NCBI GenBank assembly: GCA_965262915.1
Contig: OZ253564.1
Location: 3,232,001-3,296,000 of the forward strand
Length of the DNA stretch: 64,000 nucleotides
Source: Candidatus Spongiisociaceae bacterium
GTDB lineage: Bacteria > Actinomycetota > Acidimicrobiia > Spongiisociales > Spongiisociaceae
Direction: 5' to 3'
The notes beneath the pieces were generated by a model, which saw nothing but the letters and a program-made list of their open reading frames with translations, did no database searches and was not told the DNA's origin. The position numbers were made by a program, and so were the translations under genes. How positions within the stretch are numbered: position 1 is the first letter of the stretch; the number at the start of each line of letters is the position of its first letter. This document shows, one piece after another, positions 942 through 38,545 of this stretch.

Positions 942-968
942 GGTGGAGTTGAGGGGATTTGAACCCCT
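942..968 (-). repeat. att-like site: duplicated 3' end of tRNA-Ala
   Basis: GGTGGAGTTGAGGGGATTTGAACCCCT matches 34539-34565 (GGTGGAGCTGAGGGGATTTGAACCCCT) at 26/27 positions in direct orientation. Confidence 0.88.
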
Positions 969-17944: not shown

Positions 17945-18393
17945 CCGATCACCCACAACATTCAGTGGCCGGTGGCCATTTGCCGGGTTAGGACCGTGAA
18001 CAGGGACCCCGGGTCCCTTACCAGTGGTTGGCGGCGACCGGGACAGTATTTCGATGGTTCCCGGCGTGTAGGACCAGATCGTCAGGTAGCGACGCAGACC
18101 CTTGTCGGTCATCGATGCACGACGGGGGACGACCCAGCGAAAGCCGATCAGTCGTGTTCTGCCCCGAACCGGCAAGGAAGGACGGTTGATCAACAGACTC
18201 GTGCCCTCGCTACGCTCAAGAAGACCCGGCGGTGGTCAGTCGGAAACGACAACCTCACCGATCACCGACCGCTGGTGCTGCTCACTTGTTCAGGCCTCAG
18301 CCGCTGATTGCCCCGACACATCGCTTCATCGGCCACCGGCCACTCGCGCCTGGCAAACACCGACCCGCTAACCCTGATCGAGAAAGGATCACG

Positions 18394-19872
18394 ATGAGAA
18401 TCGCAGCCCTCGGGCTCAGCCACGAATCGAACACATATGCACCGGTTCCCGCAACCCTCGACCGGTGGCTGGCCGCCGATCCGGTCGAGGGCGACGCCCT
18501 GGTGGCCAAGTTCGCCGAGTCCCAGGCGACCCTGGGCGGCTACCTGGAGCTCGCTTCCGAGCCCGGCATCGAGATCGTCCCACTCATCTTCTTCAGCCTG
18601 ACGCCGATGGGCCCGATGACCATCGAGGCGTTCGAGACCCTCGTCGGACGCCTCCTCGCCGACCTCGAGCAGCACGGACCGTGGGATGCCGTCCTCCTCG
18701 CCCTGCACGGCGCGGCTGTCTCGGAGGAGTACCGGGACGCCGACGGCGAGATCCTCAGACGGGTCCGTGCCCTCGTCGGACCCGACATCCCCATCGGTGT
18801 CTCGCTGGACATGCACGCCAACATCTCCCAGGCGATGGTCGACCACTCCACCGTCGTGAATACCTACATGACCAACCCGCACCTGGACGCCCGGCTACGG
18901 GCGCGTCTGGCAGCCGAACTCACCGTCCAAACCGTCCGCGAGAAGATCCGCCCCGTCATGTCCCTCGAGAAGCCACCGCTGGCCGTCAACATCCTTCGTC
19001 AAGGGACCGACGACTCCCCCATGCGCGAGATCGTCGCCTTCGCCCACGAGCAGGCGACACGGCCCGGAGTCCTGTCGGTGGGCGTCGCAGAAGGCTTCCC
19101 GTACGCCGATGTGGAGGAGATGGGAATGGCCTTCCTCGCCGTCACCGACGGCGACCCCGCCCTGGCGGCCGAGGTGGCGAGGGCGGTGGCCGACGAGGCG
19201 TGGAAGGTCCGCCTCGAGCTGAATGGCGACGGCGTGGCGATCGAAGAGGCCCTGCGAAGCGCTGCCGACGCCGACCGACGCCCCGTCGTTCTTCTCGACG
19301 TGGGCGACAATGTGGGCGGAGGAAGCCCCGGCGACTCCACCCATGCCCTCGCCGCGGCCCAGCGCCTCGGGATCGGAGGCCTGTTCCAGTCGTTGTGCGA
19401 CGCTGAAGCGGTCGAAGCGTGCAAAACGGCGGGCCTCGGTACGACGGTCCATCTCGAGGTCGGCGGCAAGACCGACGACCTCCATGGCAAGCCCGTCTCG
19501 ATCACCGGCACGGTGCGAATGCTCGACGAGGGGAAGTTCGAGGATCCGGGCGCCACTCACGGAGGCTTCCGCTTCTACGACAGCGGCCACCGGGCTGTGG
19601 TCCATACCACCGATGACCACACGCTGCTGATCGACAGCCTGCCGCTGGGGAACACGAGCCTTCAGCAGCTGATCAGCGCCGGGATCGACCCGTTGACCCA
19701 GCCCATAATCGTCGCCAAGGGCGTCCACTCCCCGCGGGCCGCGTTCGAGCCGATCGCCGCCGAGCTGATCTGGATGAACACACCCGGTTGCACAGGCGCC
19801 GACCTGAGCGGGCTTGTGTACGAGCACCGCCGCCGACCGATGTACCCATTCGAGGATGATGCCCGCTACTGA
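18394..19872 (+). CDS. MlrC / M81 metallopeptidase family (2)
   Basis: HESNTY, LALHGA, SLDMHAN, YMTNPH, DVGDNVGGGSPGD, RRPMYPFE. Confidence 0.92.
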   Translation: MRIAALGLSHESNTYAPVPATLDRWLAADPVEGDALVAKFAESQATLGGYLELASEPGIEIVPLIFFSLTPMGPMTIEAFETLVGRLLADLEQHGPWDAVLLALHGAAVSEEYRDADGEILRRVRALVGPDIPIGVSLDMHANISQAMVDHSTVVNTYMTNPHLDARLRARLAAELTVQTVREKIRPVMSLEKPPLAVNILRQGTDDSPMREIVAFAHEQATRPGVLSVGVAEGFPYADVEEMGMAFLAVTDGDPALAAEVARAVADEAWKVRLELNGDGVAIEEALRSAADADRRPVVLLDVGDNVGGGSPGDSTHALAAAQRLGIGGLFQSLCDAEAVEACKTAGLGTTVHLEVGGKTDDLHGKPVSITGTVRMLDEGKFEDPGATHGGFRFYDSGHRAVVHTTDDHTLLIDSLPLGNTSLQQLISAGIDPLTQPIIVAKGVHSPRAAFEPIAAELIWMNTPGCTGADLSGLVYEHRRRPMYPFEDDARY

Positions 19873-31214: not shown

Positions 31215-32705
31215 ATGCACATGGACAGATCCGAGCGGATCCTGGTCGCCCTTATCCGGCAGGAAAGTAATAGCTTCGTGCCGGGATCGACAACGCTGGC
31301 CGACTTCGAGATGAACGGTATAGCTACCGGCGCGGCGGTCCTCGAACGGGTCGGCAACCGCGAGGTCGACGGATACCTCGACGCCGCCGAGGAACTCGGC
31401 GGCGAACTCATCCCGTTGCTCGACGCCAAGGCGCAGTCTGGGCCACCTCTGGACGACGCCACCTTCGAGCACGTCGTCGGCGAGGTCTGTGATGGCATCC
31501 GCGAGCACCGTGACACTATCGACGGAGTGATGTTGGGCCTCCACGGCGCCATGGTCACTGAGAGTCTCGACGATGCGGACGGTGAGATTCTCGCCCGGGT
31601 ACGTGCGATCGTGGGCCGAGATGTCCCCGTAGCGGCCACATTCGATCTTCACACCCATATGACCCGGCGAATGGGCGAGCTGGCCGACATCGTGGTGGGC
31701 TACCAGACGTGCCCACACGTGGATCTGCGCCGCACCGGCACGGTGGCGATGCAGATCCTGATACGGACGATCAGGGGAGAGGTGGATCCGGTCGTATCGC
31801 AGCGCAAGATCCGGATGATGACCTCCTCGGAAACCCACGACGACCGGCTGTTCCCCAACCGGGAGGTGATCGCCGCCCTCCACGAGGCCGAGACGGACCC
31901 CCGAGTCCTGGCGGCGACCGTGTTCTGCACCCAGCCCTGGCTGGACATCCCCGAGCTGGGGTGGACCGTGGTCGTGGTGACCGACGATGACGCAGCCCTG
32001 GGCCAGAGCGCGGCCGACGCCATCGCCCGCAAGGCCTGGGACCTTAGGGAGCACTACCGGGTGGAGAAGATGGACGTTGACGAGGCGATCGACGCCTCTC
32101 TCGGAGGCGAAGGCTTGTTCGCCCTGTCCGAGGGCGCCGACAGCACAACCGCCGGCGGACTGGGCGACGGCAATCTCCTGCTGCGAGCGCTCCTCCGCCG
32201 CGGCGTCGATGTCCCCTGTCTGGTCATGGTCAGCGACCCGGCCGCCGCCGACCTATGCATCCGCGCCGGTGTCGGCACCACGGTCACCACGGAACTCGGC
32301 GGCACATCCAACCCCGCCTTCTACAGCCCCGTGGAGGTCACCGGGACGGTCCAAAGCCTGACCGACGGACGCTACACGAACCACTACGGAGGCATCCGGC
32401 CGGTTGACATGGGCCCCACGGCGGTGCTCCAGGTGGGATCGATCTCAATCATGATCCCAACCCACCGCCCGCCGATGGTCGATTACGAGGCCTATCTCAG
32501 CGTCGGCGCCGATCCTCGGCAGGTGCGCATTGTCCAACCCAAGTCCGCCGGTGCCTATCGCGAGTACTACGAGCCGATCGCCACCTGCATCGACATCGAT
32601 GTTCCCGGTCCGGCCGGTAGCGACCTCACGGCGTTCCCCTTCAAACGCATCCCGCGCCCGATGTGGCCGTGGGACCCGGAATTAACCGATCCCTGGACGG
32701 AGTGA
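31215..32705 (+). CDS. MlrC / M81 metallopeptidase family (3)
   Basis: QESNSF, LGLHGAM, TFDLHTH, YQTCPH, EGADSTTAGG.GD, PRPMWPWD. Confidence 0.9.
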   Translation: MHMDRSERILVALIRQESNSFVPGSTTLADFEMNGIATGAAVLERVGNREVDGYLDAAEELGGELIPLLDAKAQSGPPLDDATFEHVVGEVCDGIREHRDTIDGVMLGLHGAMVTESLDDADGEILARVRAIVGRDVPVAATFDLHTHMTRRMGELADIVVGYQTCPHVDLRRTGTVAMQILIRTIRGEVDPVVSQRKIRMMTSSETHDDRLFPNREVIAALHEAETDPRVLAATVFCTQPWLDIPELGWTVVVVTDDDAALGQSAADAIARKAWDLREHYRVEKMDVDEAIDASLGGEGLFALSEGADSTTAGGLGDGNLLLRALLRRGVDVPCLVMVSDPAAADLCIRAGVGTTVTTELGGTSNPAFYSPVEVTGTVQSLTDGRYTNHYGGIRPVDMGPTAVLQVGSISIMIPTHRPPMVDYEAYLSVGADPRQVRIVQPKSAGAYREYYEPIATCIDIDVPGPAGSDLTAFPFKRIPRPMWPWDPELTDPWTE

Positions 32706-33547: not shown

Positions 33548-33659
33548 CTTGCGAGGCTCCTTTCCCAGCGGTTGGTCAGTCATCGAGGAATGTCATCGCC
33601 TCCATCTCGACGAAGAAGCAGGGATGAAGCGACTCGCGACCGCCGACGAAGGCACCGGC

Positions 33660-33699
33660 CATTCGAGAAGCAACATTCGAGAAGCAACATTCGAGAAGC
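33660..33699. repeat. 14-bp tandem repeat, ~2.9 copies
   Basis: CATTCGAGAAGCAA twice plus CATTCGAGAAGC. Confidence 0.9.
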
Positions 33700-33727
33700 C
33701 CGCGGGGGTTGCCGCTTCGACGGTACG

Positions 33728-34281
33728 GGCCGGTTACGGAACTCTGCCACTGTCTGGTCCAGCTCCCGGGCCAATTCGGACACCTGGGACTTGGACAGCG
33801 ACGTGACACCCGCCGCTTCGACCAGGCCCTCCACCCAACGGGTCGAGATTCCCCGCACCCAAGCCTCGGTCACCACCTGCACGAAGGCCCGCTCCGAACG
33901 GGTACGCGCATCCAACACCCACTCCGGAAAGTACGAACCCCGCCGAAGCTTGGGAATCCGCAGCTCGATTGAACCCACCCGAGCTTCCCAACGCCGAGTC
34001 CGATATCCGTTCGGACGGTTCACCCGTTCCGGGCTCTGCTGCCCCCAGGGAGCTCCGCAGATCACATCCGCCTCCGGCGACATCAGCCCCTGCGCCGAAG
34101 CTACGGACCATCTCCCGCAGCAAATCATTACCCTCTGCCTCAAGCCGGTTGCATAACCACACCAACTCGTCCATCCTTGCACCGACGACCGCGTTCCTCC
34201 TCACGGTCCAATGCCAATACCTCCCTGAGGCTGGAGCGGTAGTCACCTAACCCAAAGGACCCTCACCCAACGTACACCACT
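33728..34281 (-). pseudogene. IS256-family transposase, 5' part only, frameshifted
   Basis: NGYRTRRW...VGSIELRIPKLRRGSYFP...GISTR...SKSQVS...EFRNRP, then truncated; the N-terminal DLLREMV segment is in another frame. Confidence 0.88.
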
Positions 34282-34537: not shown

Positions 34538-34614
34538 TGGTGGAGCTGAGGGGATTTGAACCCCTGACCCCCTCGTTGCGAACGAGGTGCTCTGCCGAAC
34601 TGAGCTACAGCCCC
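34538..34614 (-). tRNA. tRNA-Ala(CGC)
   Basis: GGGGCTGTAGCTCAGTTCGGCAGAGCACCTCGTTCGCAACGAGGGGGTCAGGGGTTCAAATCCCCTCAGCTCCACCA: cloverleaf, G3:U70 pair, CGC anticodon, encoded CCA. Confidence 0.98.
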
Positions 34615-34739
34615 GGGTGCAGCGCCATTGTACCCGGAATGACGGGCGGGGCGATCCGGCTATAGCAGGACTTCACCGCTGCCTCGGAATGCCTTGGAGA
34701 ACGGCGGTCGCTCTCGCCCGTCTTCGTCGAGCGCGCTTT

Positions 34740-35390
34740 CTATGGCCGGACGACGGGTGGCGCATGGGTTGCTGCGCACTCCCGAAGGTCGCGGCGGAGT
34801 CGCTCGGCCACCAGCGCCGACGTGAGATCGGCCCTGCTACGTTCCGTCAGGCTGCGGGCTACGTCGGTGGTGCGGCGTAACCCGCCGGTCATGCCATCGG
34901 GATAGTCGAGGGCCGCCAGCAAATCGACGATCTCGTCCATGACCGCCAGCAGCTGCTCCGCCTCCTCGAACTCCTCGGCTCGCAACTGGTCGAGAAGACG
35001 ACGACGGAGTTCCCCGACCGCCTCGCCCAGACCCTTGAGGTAGGGAACCATGGTCATTCCCAGGTCCTGTGCGGTGGGGAGTTCGTGGCGGAACGCCAAA
35101 GCCAGGAACAGGCGGGCTTCGGCGTACTCCTTGGCCGCGTCGTTGAGAATGCCTACGTTGATGTCGGAATGGCCGGCCATGGCGCCGGTGGACTCCTCGA
35201 GGAGTAGGCGAGCCTCCTCGAGCAACGAACCGGCTGCCTCGAGTTCTCCCCGGTGTACCGAACGGATGGCTCTCGCCGAGCATCTGATGATCTGGCGACC
35301 GTTGACGATGACCGTTTCCCTCGCCGAGAACTTCGGGTCGAGTTCGGCGCGTGCGGCAGTCTCGATGGAGGAGAGATCGGGGAGGATCAT
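34740..35390 (-). CDS. Translin/Trax (C3PO) family protein
   Basis: All-helical 216 aa with ARE......R.IIR.S..AI..VHRG, EYAEA, YLKGLGEAVGELRR, LRRTTDVARSLTERSR, characteristic of archaeal-type Trax. Confidence 0.85.
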   Translation of the reverse strand: MILPDLSSIETAARAELDPKFSARETVIVNGRQIIRCSARAIRSVHRGELEAAGSLLEEARLLLEESTGAMAGHSDINVGILNDAAKEYAEARLFLALAFRHELPTAQDLGMTMVPYLKGLGEAVGELRRRLLDQLRAEEFEEAEQLLAVMDEIVDLLAALDYPDGMTGGLRRTTDVARSLTERSRADLTSALVAERLRRDLRECAATHAPPVVRP

Positions 35391-35397
35391 GGGATCG

Positions 35398-35883
35398 CTA
35401 GCGAGATTGAACGACTCTGACCCTGGAGCTGTAGAACATCATCTCGGTCTCCTGCTCCGAAGCCATGCTCTCGAGCTCGGCCGCTCTCTGCCGATCCTTG
35501 ATCTGGCGGAGCATCGCCATGTACCAGATGAGCAGGGCGTCGAACGCCAGATGGGAACCGATGATCCACAGGCTCCGGAAGATGACGGCTGCGACCAGGG
35601 TCCCGATGGCGGCGGTCGCCAGCGTGACGACTGCCTGGCGCCGACGGGACAGGATCGCGGCGCTAGCCATTCCGCTCGCCACCGCCTCGACCGGGGCGAC
35701 CGGACCGGGAGCGGAACTGTGATAGGTGTCCCGGGGTGCCCGCCCGGCCTGCTCCGGCTGCTCGGTGAGCCTGGCGGCACGGCGGTTGGGACTGAGCCAG
35801 GAAGTGCGCCGATCGGCCCATAGAGGAGGCAGTATACACACCGCCCATAGACAGGCAATCACCAGAAAGAGCGCCCAAGCCAT
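35398..35883 (-). CDS. Membrane protein, SepX/GlpR-like by topology and position
   Basis: N-terminal TM (WAVCILPPLW), disordered linker, RRRQ followed by two TM helices and a charged tail; lies downstream of galU-moeA-moaC and upstream of tRNA-Ala(CGC). Confidence 0.6.
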   Translation of the reverse strand: MAWALFLVIACLWAVCILPPLWADRRTSWLSPNRRAARLTEQPEQAGRAPRDTYHSSAPGPVAPVEAVASGMASAAILSRRRQAVVTLATAAIGTLVAAVIFRSLWIIGSHLAFDALLIWYMAMLRQIKDRQRAAELESMASEQETEMMFYSSRVRVVQSR

Positions 35884-36002
35884 CTCTGCAGCCAACTCCC
35901 CGATCCGCAATCGCAAGACAGGTTATACGCCACAGGGTGAGTATCCAAGGATTTCCGGCCGATGCGTGGCGGTGTCGGACCCCCGCGCAAGGACCTCCGG
36001 CC

Positions 36003-36485
36003 TCACTCCGATCCGGCGGACCAGGATCCGGACCGGCCCCCCGACTTGTGCAGAAGGCGTATCCCGTCGATCCGGGCGCCTCGTTCGACTCCCTTGATCA
36101 TGTCGTAGAGGGTCAGGGCCGCGATCGAGGCCGCGGTGAGGGCCTCCATCTCCACCCCGGTCCGGTCCGTGGTCCTCACCGTGGACCGGATCCGGGCTGC
36201 CGACCCGGTTCGGTCCACGGTGACAGTCACGTCCGATATCGACAGCGGATGGCAGAGTGGGATCAGCTCGGCAGTCTTCTTGGCCGCCATGATCCCCGCC
36301 AGCCGGGCGGTGCCGATCGCGTCACCCTTCGACAGGCCACCGTCGAATACCAGGTCGAGCGTCGCCTCGGACGCCACCACCACGGCCTCGGCGGTTGCCC
36401 TCCGGTCGCTGACCGGCTTGTCGCCGACGTCCACCATCCGCGCCCGGCCTCGCTCGTCGATATGGGTAAGACCGATGTCAACCAT
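36003..36485 (-). CDS. moaC: Cyclic pyranopterin monophosphate synthase accessory protein
   Basis: [42 protein letters not shown]. Confidence 0.97.
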
Positions 36486-37710
36486 CGAATGCGTCGGATG
36501 CGGGGCGGGTCTCCGGAGCGCGGAACAACTCGATCGTGACCCGATCCCCCACCTCCACATAGCCGGTCCCCACCGGAACCACCGCGAAGGCATCGGCCCG
36601 GGCCAGCGAGGAAAGAACGTTCGACATCTGGGCGCCGCTGCTTCTGATGTAGGTGATCCCATCCCGGATGTCGGTGATCACCCTGGTGAACACCGTCTTT
36701 GCCGGATCGGTACGCCATCTCTCGGTTGCGACCGCCGGAACCAGGGGACGGAACACCGCGGTACATCCCATCATGTGCAGCAGGGCAGGGCGGGCGAACT
36801 GCTCGTAGGCCACCATGACCGAGACCGGATTGCCGGGAAGGCCCAGCAGAGGCGTACCGTCGATATGGCCGAAAGCAAACGGCTTGGCGGGTTGCATGGC
36901 CACCTGCCAGAACTCGACAGTCCCGAGTTCGGCCAGGATCGCTTTGACGAGGTCGTACTCGCCTTTGGAAACACCACCCGACGTGAGCACCATGTCCGCA
37001 GTCGCAGCCCCCTCGGCCAAGGCGCTGCGCAAGGTGTCGGCGTCGTCCCCCACGATGCCCAGATCCACGACCACCGCTCCCAACCTCTCCAGGAGACCGA
37101 TGAGCAACGGACGGTTGGTATCACGGATCTGCCCCGGACCGAGGACTCTCGTGTCAGGAGGCAGCACCTCATCGCCGGTGGACAGTACCGCGACCCGAGG
37201 GCGGCGCCGGACGGCCGGAGCGACACCCAGCGACGCCAGCACCGCCACGTGGCGGGCGGTGAGGCGCTCCCCGACCTCGAATACCGGCTCGCCGGCTACC
37301 AGATCGCCGCCGGCCGGGCGAACCGCGGTTCCCGTCGCGGTCTCCGCCAGGATCAGTACCCCGGCGGGAAGCGGCTCGGTGTCCTCCACCTTCACGACCG
37401 TATCGGCCCCACCGGGCATCGGTGCACCGGTCATGATCTTGATGGCCGTACCGGGCGTGACCGTGGCCCGCGCCACATGTCCGGCGGGCACATCCTCGAG
37501 CACCCGGAGCGTCGCCGGCGCCGTCGACACGTCGGCGCCCAGCACCGCGTACCCATCCATGGCCGAGTTGGTGAACGGGGGGACATCGTGAGGCGCCAGC
37601 ACGGGCCGGGCCAGGGCCAAGCCGAGCACCTGGCCGAGCGGTAGTTCCACCATCGGCAGCGGGGGCACCGAGATCAGTACTTCTCTCTGGGCTTCAGCGA
37701 GCGGGCGCAT
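36478..37710 (-). CDS. moeA: Molybdopterin molybdotransferase (gephyrin-like Glp)
   Basis: [37 protein letters not shown]. Confidence 0.96.
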
Positions 37711-38545
37711 AGGTCCATTCCACCAGAAGATCGTCGACTATGGCGCGGAAATCTGGGCCGTAGACGGGATCGAGGGCGCCCAGCACCGCGTTGGCGTGCA
37801 GGTAGCCGAGAGGATTCCCGACATCGAGCAACTCGACATCGGCCACGTACGCCCGGCATCTTCCTGCCTCCCCCAGCGCTGCGATCGCATCAGTCAACTG
37901 TATCTCGCCTCCGTAGCCGGGTTGGGTCCGTTCGAGGTACTCGAACACCTCGGGCATGAACAGGTAGCGTCCATGGATCCCGTAATTGGACGGCGCACGG
38001 GCCGCACCCGGCTTCTCCACCGCTCCCCCGACCTCCACAACATCGCCGGACACCTCGGATCGAGGAACGATCACCCCCTTGACGTCGAGCATCTCGTCCG
38101 GCAACTCTCGCACGTAGACGACCGATACCCCGCCGTCGGCTGCTGCCGCCAGATGGGGGAGGATGTCATCTCGCGGCCGGATCAGATCGTCGGCCAGCAA
38201 CACGTAGAACGGGCGGTCCCCTATCGCCTCGCGTCCCATGAGCACCGCATGCCCCAGTCCCTTGGCCTCGTGCTGGACCACCGACCGAACCCGGATGCCC
38301 TCCAATCCCGGGAGGAACCGGGATGAGACGAAATGTCGCTCGATGATCGTCCCGCCATCGGGATCAGCCACCACGACCACCTCGGTTACTCCCGCCCGGA
38401 CTGCCTCCTCCACGACCCACTGGATGCTCGGACGATCGACCACGGTGAGCAGTGCCTTGGGAATGGCGTTGGTGGCCGGACGCATCCGCGTCCCGCGACC
38501 CGCAGCCGGGACCAGCGCTACGTCGACCTTCATGGTGCTGGACAC
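37694..38545 (-). CDS. galU: UTP-glucose-1-phosphate uridylyltransferase
   Basis: PAAGRGTRMRPAT..IPK, GLGHAV, VEKP, GGEIQLTDAI. Confidence 0.92.
   Translation of the reverse strand: MSSTMKVDVALVPAAGRGTRMRPATNAIPKALLTVVDRPSIQWVVEEAVRAGVTEVVVVADPDGGTIIERHFVSSRFLPGLEGIRVRSVVQHEAKGLGHAVLMGREAIGDRPFYVLLADDLIRPRDDILPHLAAAADGGVSVVYVRELPDEMLDVKGVIVPRSEVSGDVVEVGGAVEKPGAARAPSNYGIHGRYLFMPEVFEYLERTQPGYGGEIQLTDAIAALGEAGRCRAYVADVELLDVGNPLGYLHANAVLGALDPVYGPDFRAIVDDLLVEWTYAPAR

Follow-up and report, generated by a model that had tools for sequence, protein, structure and literature searches.

Introduction

Nucleases of the C3PO/TRAX type have been studied in eukaryotic RNA interference, in tRNA processing, and in two archaea. 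Eukaryotic C3PO is a hetero-octamer of translin and TRAX with roles in the activation of RISC (the RNA-induced silencing complex) and in the removal of pre-tRNA fragments; the C3PO of Neurospora is said to process such fragments. Here we analyse a bacterial relative, a 216-residue TRAX-like protein of the C3PO type encoded on the minus strand of the genome of a sponge-associated Candidatus Spongiisociaceae bacterium (Actinomycetota, Acidimicrobiia), at positions 34740..35390 of the 64,000-nucleotide stretch of DNA under study (the window). The gene, which we call trax, has an ATG start (the coordinates include its stop codon) and is followed on the same strand by a tRNA-Ala gene with a CGC anticodon.

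The closest described proteins are archaeal. As set out in passages of PMC5100593, AfC3PO (AfTRAX) of Archaeoglobus fulgidus and NeC3PO (NEQ131) of Nanoarchaeum equitans are both homo-octamers with the active sites inside. The catalytic centre comprises four acidic residues (Glu123, Glu126, Asp193 and Glu197 in HsTrax; Glu82, Glu85, Asp117 and Glu121 in NeC3PO), mutation of which lowers cleavage; D114 of AfC3PO was mutated to obtain the RNA complex. The same passages describe inter-subunit salt bridges made by R124, R163, R164 and D167 of NeC3PO. Single translin-superfamily genes in archaea and, of the bacteria, in Chloroflexi were reported by Gupta et al. 2012 (J Mol Evol), as cited in PMC5100593 and PMC5424206. 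Our full-text literature search turned up no biochemical work on any bacterial member, in agreement with an earlier annotation of this locus from the DNA letters (the sequence-only reading), which had called the bacterial members uncharacterised; nor did it find a paper tying translin to Actinobacteria.

Compared with AfTRAX (structures 3ZC0 and 3ZC1), the protein analysed here is bacterial, about 17 residues longer, and has Glu123 in the place of Asp D114; it is known from its sequence and a model. Identity to NeC3PO (5JR9, 5JRC, 5JRE) is as low as 17-18%. Unlike eukaryotic C3PO, the protein has no translin partner gene (the genome holds one copy) and no RNA interference context. The Chloroflexi proteins belong to the same family, and the Chloroflexota homologues are 40-50% identical to ours; the protein here, however, comes from Acidimicrobiia, a class of the Actinomycetota, a phylum that the cited passages of PMC5100593 and PMC5424206 do not name, and the Chloroflexota genes lack a nearby tRNA.

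Profile searches and modelling point to a TRAX-type protein

In a phmmer search against solved structures, the trax product matched AfTRAX (3zc1/3zc0) with an E-value (E) of 1.4e-21 over residues 14-198, and NEQ131 weakly (E 5e-3). A family profile, built from an alignment of 80 diverse relatives (A1), recovered AfTRAX at 1.7e-47, NEQ131 at 1.2e-21, human TRAX at 2.7e-16 and Drosophila TRAX at 3e-11, with translin chains reaching 2e-3 or thereabouts and no better. When supplied with the A1 alignment, AlphaFold2 yielded an all-helical model of seven helices with a predicted local distance difference test score (pLDDT) of 97.4, which supersedes the poor model obtained from the single sequence (pLDDT 65.8). 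The top Foldseek match of the alignment-based model is AfC3PO (template modelling scores 0.79/0.90, root-mean-square deviation 1.8 A, 33% identity); NeC3PO comes next, then the human and fly C3PO complexes and the translins. VIA-align also puts AfC3PO first. Profile and fold place the protein among the TRAX-type members of the translin superfamily, and the Translin-family assignment of the sequence-only reading stands, given the matches to AfC3PO, NeC3PO and eukaryotic TRAX.

The predicted active site is nearly invariant

The two acidic motifs picked out earlier are present: EYAE at residues 88-91 (35129..35118) and GEAVGE at residues 122-127 (35027..35010), the latter aligned by phmmer over ADAVGE of AfTRAX. 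Within these motifs we predict four metal ligands, E88 (35129-35127), E91 (35120-35118), E123 (35024-35022) and E127 (35012-35010), which form the acidic pattern E-x2-E, 31 residues, [DE]-x3-E, with the same 3/32/4 spacing as the four NeC3PO residues listed in the PMC5100593 passages. Across the A1 columns, E88 is found in 79/80 sequences, E91 in 79/80 with Asp in the remaining one, and E127 in all 80. The Glu at the usual Asp position, which the sequence-only reading had remarked upon, is indeed there and turns out to be the commoner state: position 123 is Glu in 53 and Asp in 27 of the 80, and Glu, being the majority, is therefore no oddity in the bacterial family.

Residues that may hold the subunits together are similarly conserved. 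R130 and D176 are invariant in A1, R172 is found in 75/80 sequences and R173 in 72/80; by their spacing, we infer that these four match the salt-bridge residues R124, R163, R164 and D167 described for NeC3PO in part of PMC5100593. By analogy with AfC3PO and NeC3PO, the protein probably assembles into a closed homo-oligomer, which would be an octamer. The oligomeric state, the nuclease activity and the cellular substrate considered below are likewise those that we infer by analogy.

TRAX-like genes are widespread in Actinomycetota

Matches at E<=1e-3 were found for 4586 database proteins among the 8000 candidates scored, and an exhaustive search of representatives in a library of 50%-identity clusters returned 1451 clusters at E<=1e-3, 741 of them at E<=1e-10; by this measure the trax open reading frame (ORF) is real and conserved. 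The named matches are called either ‘haloacid dehalogenase’ (NCBI) or ‘translin’ (JGI). The closest genomes are metagenome-assembled genomes labelled Acidimicrobiia or Candidatus Spongiisociaceae. Our genome holds a single trax copy. In a sample of the phylum, which also served for the oligoribonuclease tallies below and includes 12 genomes flagged as unpublished (three of them the sources of loci L031, L038 and L055), trax was matched in 165/401 genomes, or 142/367 if the high-quality ones are taken; in the class sample it was matched in 74/121. It is retained in 22/27 genomes of f83, a family of streamlined Acidimicrobiia with genomes of about 1 Mb, where four of the loci (L099, L100, L114 and L115) have neither a tRNA nor moaC nearby.

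Beyond the class, relatives occur in Candidatus Aquicultor, in unclassified Actinomycetota, in an Omnitrophota, as a Lokiarchaeota protein, and in many Chloroflexota (Anaerolineae, Dehalococcoidia, Tepidiformaceae). A FastTree phylogeny of 77 hand-picked rows (with a single Lokiarchaeota outgroup and no support values) puts the protein inside a coherent Acidimicrobiia clade. In the same tree the Dehalococcoidia are nested among Actinomycetota, and the Anaerolineae group with two Actinomycetota sequences; the interleaving hints at transfer between the phyla, and the tree is too weak for transfer to be claimed.

We also considered whether TRAX replaces the oligoribonuclease Orn, and rejected this idea, as whole families have both enzymes and many genomes of the phylum have neither. 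Within the class (n=121), Trax and Orn occur together in 33 genomes, Trax alone in 41, Orn alone in 36 and neither of them in 11; in the phylum sample (n=401) Trax is matched in 165, Orn in 69 and both in 9. Orn (NF003765) was not found in our genome, which has an NrnA-like DHH protein, and no Orn match was obtained for any of the 27 genomes of f83.

trax is the last gene of a conserved block that ends at tRNA-Ala

All genes of the block lie on the minus strand. A galU-like nucleotidyltransferase (37694..38545; Pfam NTP_transferase, E 1.1e-23) comes first, followed by moeA (36478..37710; Pfam MoeA_N, MoCF_biosynth and MoeA_C) and moaC (36003..36662; Pfam MoaC, E 2.1e-50, residues 76-209), the three assignments being backed by synteny. 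Taken at its longest, the moaC ORF shares 185 nt with moeA; since the Pfam MoaC domain begins only at residue 76, the true start is probably downstream of the first ATG of that ORF. Next comes an ORF for a SepX/GlpR-like membrane protein (35398..35916; 172 residues as called from a TTG), which the NCBIfam SepX_GlpR models match only weakly (E 1.4e-5 and 2e-5, far under their cut-offs). A gap of 7 nt (35391-35397) separates it from the trax ATG, and a spacer of 125 nt (34615-34739) lies between the trax stop and the 5' end of tRNA-Ala(CGC), found by ARAGORN at 34538..34614 (-) as the sole tRNA of the window. The ORF length, both distances and the strand of the tRNA are as the sequence-only reading had them. 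The order galU-moeA-moaC-sepX-trax-tRNA-Ala(CGC) is strongly kept within the Acidimicrobiia.

The tRNA neighbour looks like inherited gene order

The sequence-only reading had inferred from the adjacency that the enzyme might process tRNA precursors, and had proposed a survey of tRNA adjacency among bacterial homologues. We counted loci with a same-strand tRNA-Ala(CGC) no more than 250 nt downstream of trax, taking as assessable those with at least 300 nt of downstream sequence and omitting duplicate places (L096, L097, L179), our own locus and loci centred on the tRNA. Such a tRNA follows trax in 20/25 Acidimicrobiia-type loci (farther away in three, on the opposite strand in one, absent in one), in 32/85 further genomes of the phylum or class (farther in eight, absent in 43, with another tRNA coming first in two) and in 18/45 loci of a second Actinomycetota clade (farther in 19, opposite in one, absent in seven). 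It does so in 0/11 Aquicultor-type or unlabelled loci (farther in one, absent in ten) and in 0/65 Chloroflexota-labelled loci, all 65 of which lack any downstream tRNA within the flank examined. Categories not mentioned for a group have a count of zero. In a subclade of unclassified Actinomycetota (L182-L189, L192, L195, L196, L206, L207, L212, L219, L223) tRNA-Ala(CGC) lies some 600-770 nt from trax rather than 40-130 nt, a gap with room for one inserted gene.

Genomes of the class without trax are informative here. Of five that were searched, four returned a locus with tRNA-Ala(CGC). In each of these the tRNA follows moaC on the same strand at a distance of 664-994 nt, and nothing there matches trax. 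In the two that we read, the interval between moaC and the tRNA holds a SepX/GlpR-like ORF.

The tRNA also appears to have a promoter of its own. A -10-like hexamer, TACAAT (34627..34632, minus strand), stops 12 nt short of the mature tRNA-Ala 5' end, and TACAAT or TAGAAT is kept in relatives even where the intergenic gap is 15 nt. A TAnnnT box ending 5-18 nt upstream was found for 68/75 tRNA-Ala(CGC) genes, a few of which are the same place twice (L049/L096, L054/L097 and probably L022/L035), as against 5.5% of 5000 random positions; it is also present in the four loci without trax. Across the phylum the distance from the end of the box, which often reads TACAAT or TAGAAT, to the mature tRNA is 9-15 nt, and in L004 and L008 the box overlaps the trax stop codon. 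Such a position implies a very short tRNA leader. Going by this predicted promoter, tRNA-Ala is a separate transcription unit.

Because the tRNA stays put with or without trax, because homologues outside the block have no tRNA neighbour and because the tRNA has its own -10 box, the adjacency looks like inherited gene order and not a sign of function. The inference of tRNA-precursor processing, in so far as it drew on the adjacency, finds no support in the gene context. For RNA evidence we turned to Logan contigs from four RNA or presumed-RNA runs, which show neither transcript levels nor transcript ends. The sepX-like ORF is covered in 4/4 runs, fragments of the 3' end of trax in two and the tRNA in one; no contig from these four runs spans trax and the tRNA, and the greater part of trax has no coverage. 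As the contigs show no transcript ends, the absence of a bridging contig is weak evidence.

tRNA-Ala as a possible former integration site

The sequence-only reading had further taken the tRNA for an integration site. A DNA search of the same genome revealed a direct repeat of the tRNA 3' end: 942..968 (-) is identical at 26/27 positions to the 3'-terminal 27 nt of tRNA-Ala(CGC) (34539-34565), in the same orientation. A pattern search returned these two matches, a number reached in 0/100 shuffles; an earlier attachment-site search with a 32-nt pattern and up to three mismatches had returned the tRNA itself only. The repeat arms bracket about 33.6 kb (969-34538), and colinearity with 27 relatives ends at tRNA-Ala.

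The bracketed DNA carries ordinary transport and catabolic genes, such as ATP-binding cassette (ABC) transporters, short-chain dehydrogenases/reductases (SDRs), M81 peptidases and amidohydrolases. It is rich in paralogues, with two clusters of peptide or amino-acid ABC transporters, several SDR genes and two genes for M81/MlrC-type metallopeptidases (18232-19872 and 31215-32705, both on the plus strand). Its sole mobile-element match is a truncated transposase remnant of the Mutator/IS256 family (33580..34182, minus strand), which lies some 360 nt past the 3' end of the tRNA; Pfam Transposase_mut recognises it at E 4.6e-32 through no more than positions 35-156 of a 379-position profile. A scan of the 33 longer ORFs turned up no integrase or recombinase family; no break in G+C content was seen at the tRNA in the profiled 26-40 kb. 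The DNA past the far repeat has no match in the downstream flanks of the relatives, which is why an empty site could not be reconstructed, and none was found.

The segment thus resembles tRNA-targeted genomic islands in its repeat of the tRNA 3' end, in the stop of synteny at the tRNA and in the adjoining transposase remnant, and differs from them in that no integrase was found (33 ORFs), no break in G+C content was seen (26-40 kb), no empty site was found in relatives, and the cargo is ordinary metabolism and transport. That it is an old, decayed insertion at tRNA-Ala is plausible from these sequence features, not proven. The earlier claim of an integration site gains the 26/27 repeat at 942-968 in its support, while the integrase and the empty site that would go with it were not found.

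Discussion

We think it probable, without being confident, that trax encodes a bacterial housekeeping nuclease of the archaeal C3PO type, next to which an independently transcribed tRNA gene, once an integration site, has come to lie by inherited order. A seven-helix protein of the translin fold would form a closed homo-oligomer (by analogy an octamer), on the inner wall of which E88, E91, E123 and E127 would bind two Mg2+ or Mn2+ ions; short RNA, and possibly DNA, entering the cavity would be cut, and the cellular role would most likely be the housekeeping clearance of short RNA fragments. The gene would be the last of an actinobacterial block, galU-moeA-moaC-sepX-trax, that ends at tRNA-Ala(CGC); the tRNA would be transcribed from its own promoter, hold its position independently of the presence of trax, and have served as an integration site in the past. 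A stand-alone barrel nuclease acting on short RNA is the most economical reading of the sequence data. A housekeeping role is favoured by the single genomic copy and by the breadth of the distribution (165/401 genomes of the phylum, 74/121 of the class and 22/27 of the ~1-Mb genomes). A role in anti-phage defence was considered and dropped: a PADLOC search for defence systems gave no match.

Several observations weigh against this reading. Pfam assigns the protein no family at E<=0.01. Its Translin family (PF01997) matches residues 106-164, the stretch with the second acidic motif, at E 0.16 only, and the 12.4 bits obtained fall below the gathering score of 25.9. Of the refuting outcomes listed in the sequence-only reading, the lack of a Translin HMM match thus occurs, if by a narrow margin. 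The same Pfam model matches 66/80 of the A1 relatives at E<=1 (best 2.9e-12); it was made mainly for eukaryotic members. We let the profile and structural matches outweigh the Pfam miss. In NCBIfam, the equivalog model PRK14562.1-5 (NF011160) gives 191.9 bits (E 9.2e-57), short of its cut-off of 291, which is reached in 0/121 genomes of the class; among 14 control genomes NF011160 matches were found in three archaea only. By this score the protein is related to the equivalog's family and is not a member of the equivalog. That the protein clears RNA fragments is extrapolated from the eukaryotic and archaeal enzymes. Finally, no terminator-like site was found between trax and tRNA-Ala, and the trax-tRNA-Ala(CGC) pair, at 40-130 nt, persists in divergent Actinomycetota, some of which have neither moaC nor galU close by (e.g. 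L091-L093). Given the persistent pair and the lack of a terminator-like site, read-through into the tRNA, and with it some tRNA-related role, is possible.

These last points lend some substance to the idea that the nuclease is tied to its neighbour, maturing tRNA precursors or clearing their fragments, those of a co-transcribed tRNA-Ala(CGC) included. The idea draws on the close same-strand tRNA in 20/25 Acidimicrobiia-type loci, 32/85 further genomes of the phylum and 18/45 loci of the second Actinomycetota clade, and on archaea, where the genes for TRAX and for SepRS, which charges tRNA, make up an ancestral operon according to a passage of PMC5424206. We nevertheless hold it to be unlikely: Trax-negative relatives have the tRNA in the same place after sepX, 19/45 second-clade loci have it more than 250 nt away (mostly at ~600-770 nt), the Chloroflexota-labelled (0/65 with any downstream tRNA) and Aquicultor-type loci (0/11 within 250 nt) do without it, its own -10 box lies 12 nt upstream as in 68/75 related tRNA genes, and, for what little this weighs, no RNA-library contig bridges the two. 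A stronger version, which we put forward as a long shot, holds that trax and tRNA-Ala(CGC) are an ancestral functional pair in the Actinomycetota, in which a read-through transcript would be made and the TRAX-like barrel would destroy the spacer, leader and trailer fragments released from it as the tRNA is excised. If true, bacteria would have an equivalent of what fungal C3PO is credited with, the clearing of pre-tRNA fragments, and this could explain the retention of trax in 1-Mb Acidimicrobiia that have no Orn match. The 7-nt gap to the SepX-like ORF points elsewhere, to a protein that works with its operon partners, be it SepX/GlpR in division or the molybdenum-cofactor genes, and not in general RNA turnover; galU-moeA-moaC-sepX-trax is indeed kept across Acidimicrobiia-type loci and partly in other lineages of the phylum. 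We are sceptical of this too, as the block occurs without trax, and trax without the block in Chloroflexota, Aquicultor-type genomes and several Actinomycetota families, where its neighbours are unrelated: a small ORF, a YkuD L,D-transpeptidase and a Cas4-like PD-(D/E)xK nuclease recur downstream in 16-19/48 Chloroflexota loci (often in L138-L171), and HNH, acylphosphatase and true HAD hydrolase genes flank trax in 8-9 Aquicultor-type loci (within L128-L137). No partner gene is common to these two groups, and none is conserved across phyla.

Two further alternatives concern the protein itself. It could be a non-catalytic binder of nucleic acids like eukaryotic translin, a thought encouraged by the homo-octameric archaeal C3PO, in which 6/8 identical subunits are non-cutting and ‘translin-like’ according to a passage of PMC5100593; with four acidic ligands nearly invariant in 80 diverse members, and an A1 profile that favours TRAX chains (2.7e-16 and 3e-11) over translins (~2e-3), this is very improbable. 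The label ‘haloacid dehalogenase (superfamily protein)’, attached to the NCBIfam PRK14562 models and to several database entries, would make the protein a hydrolase of the haloacid dehalogenase (HAD) superfamily. We give this virtually no credence: the Pfam matches returned for it include no HAD family, the model is an all-helical bundle whose top structures are C3PO, TRAX and translin, and JGI names the relatives ‘translin’, so that the HAD identity was discarded as already refuted by the fold and profile matches.

A housekeeping nuclease of the C3PO type is, then, how we prefer to read the gene, and the protein is, on its sequence, a further member of a known bacterial TRAX branch that annotation pipelines already label. 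The NCBI-derived ‘haloacid dehalogenase’ names are wrong for these proteins and merit correction. The tRNA neighbour is a tempting but misleading clue, and biochemistry and transcript mapping are a better place to start than gene order. The family reaches past the Chloroflexi, into about four in ten of the sampled Actinomycetota genomes, highly reduced ones included; with its catalytic and predicted interface residues almost invariant, it would represent a conserved, probably housekeeping, predicted RNA nuclease in many uncultured bacteria.

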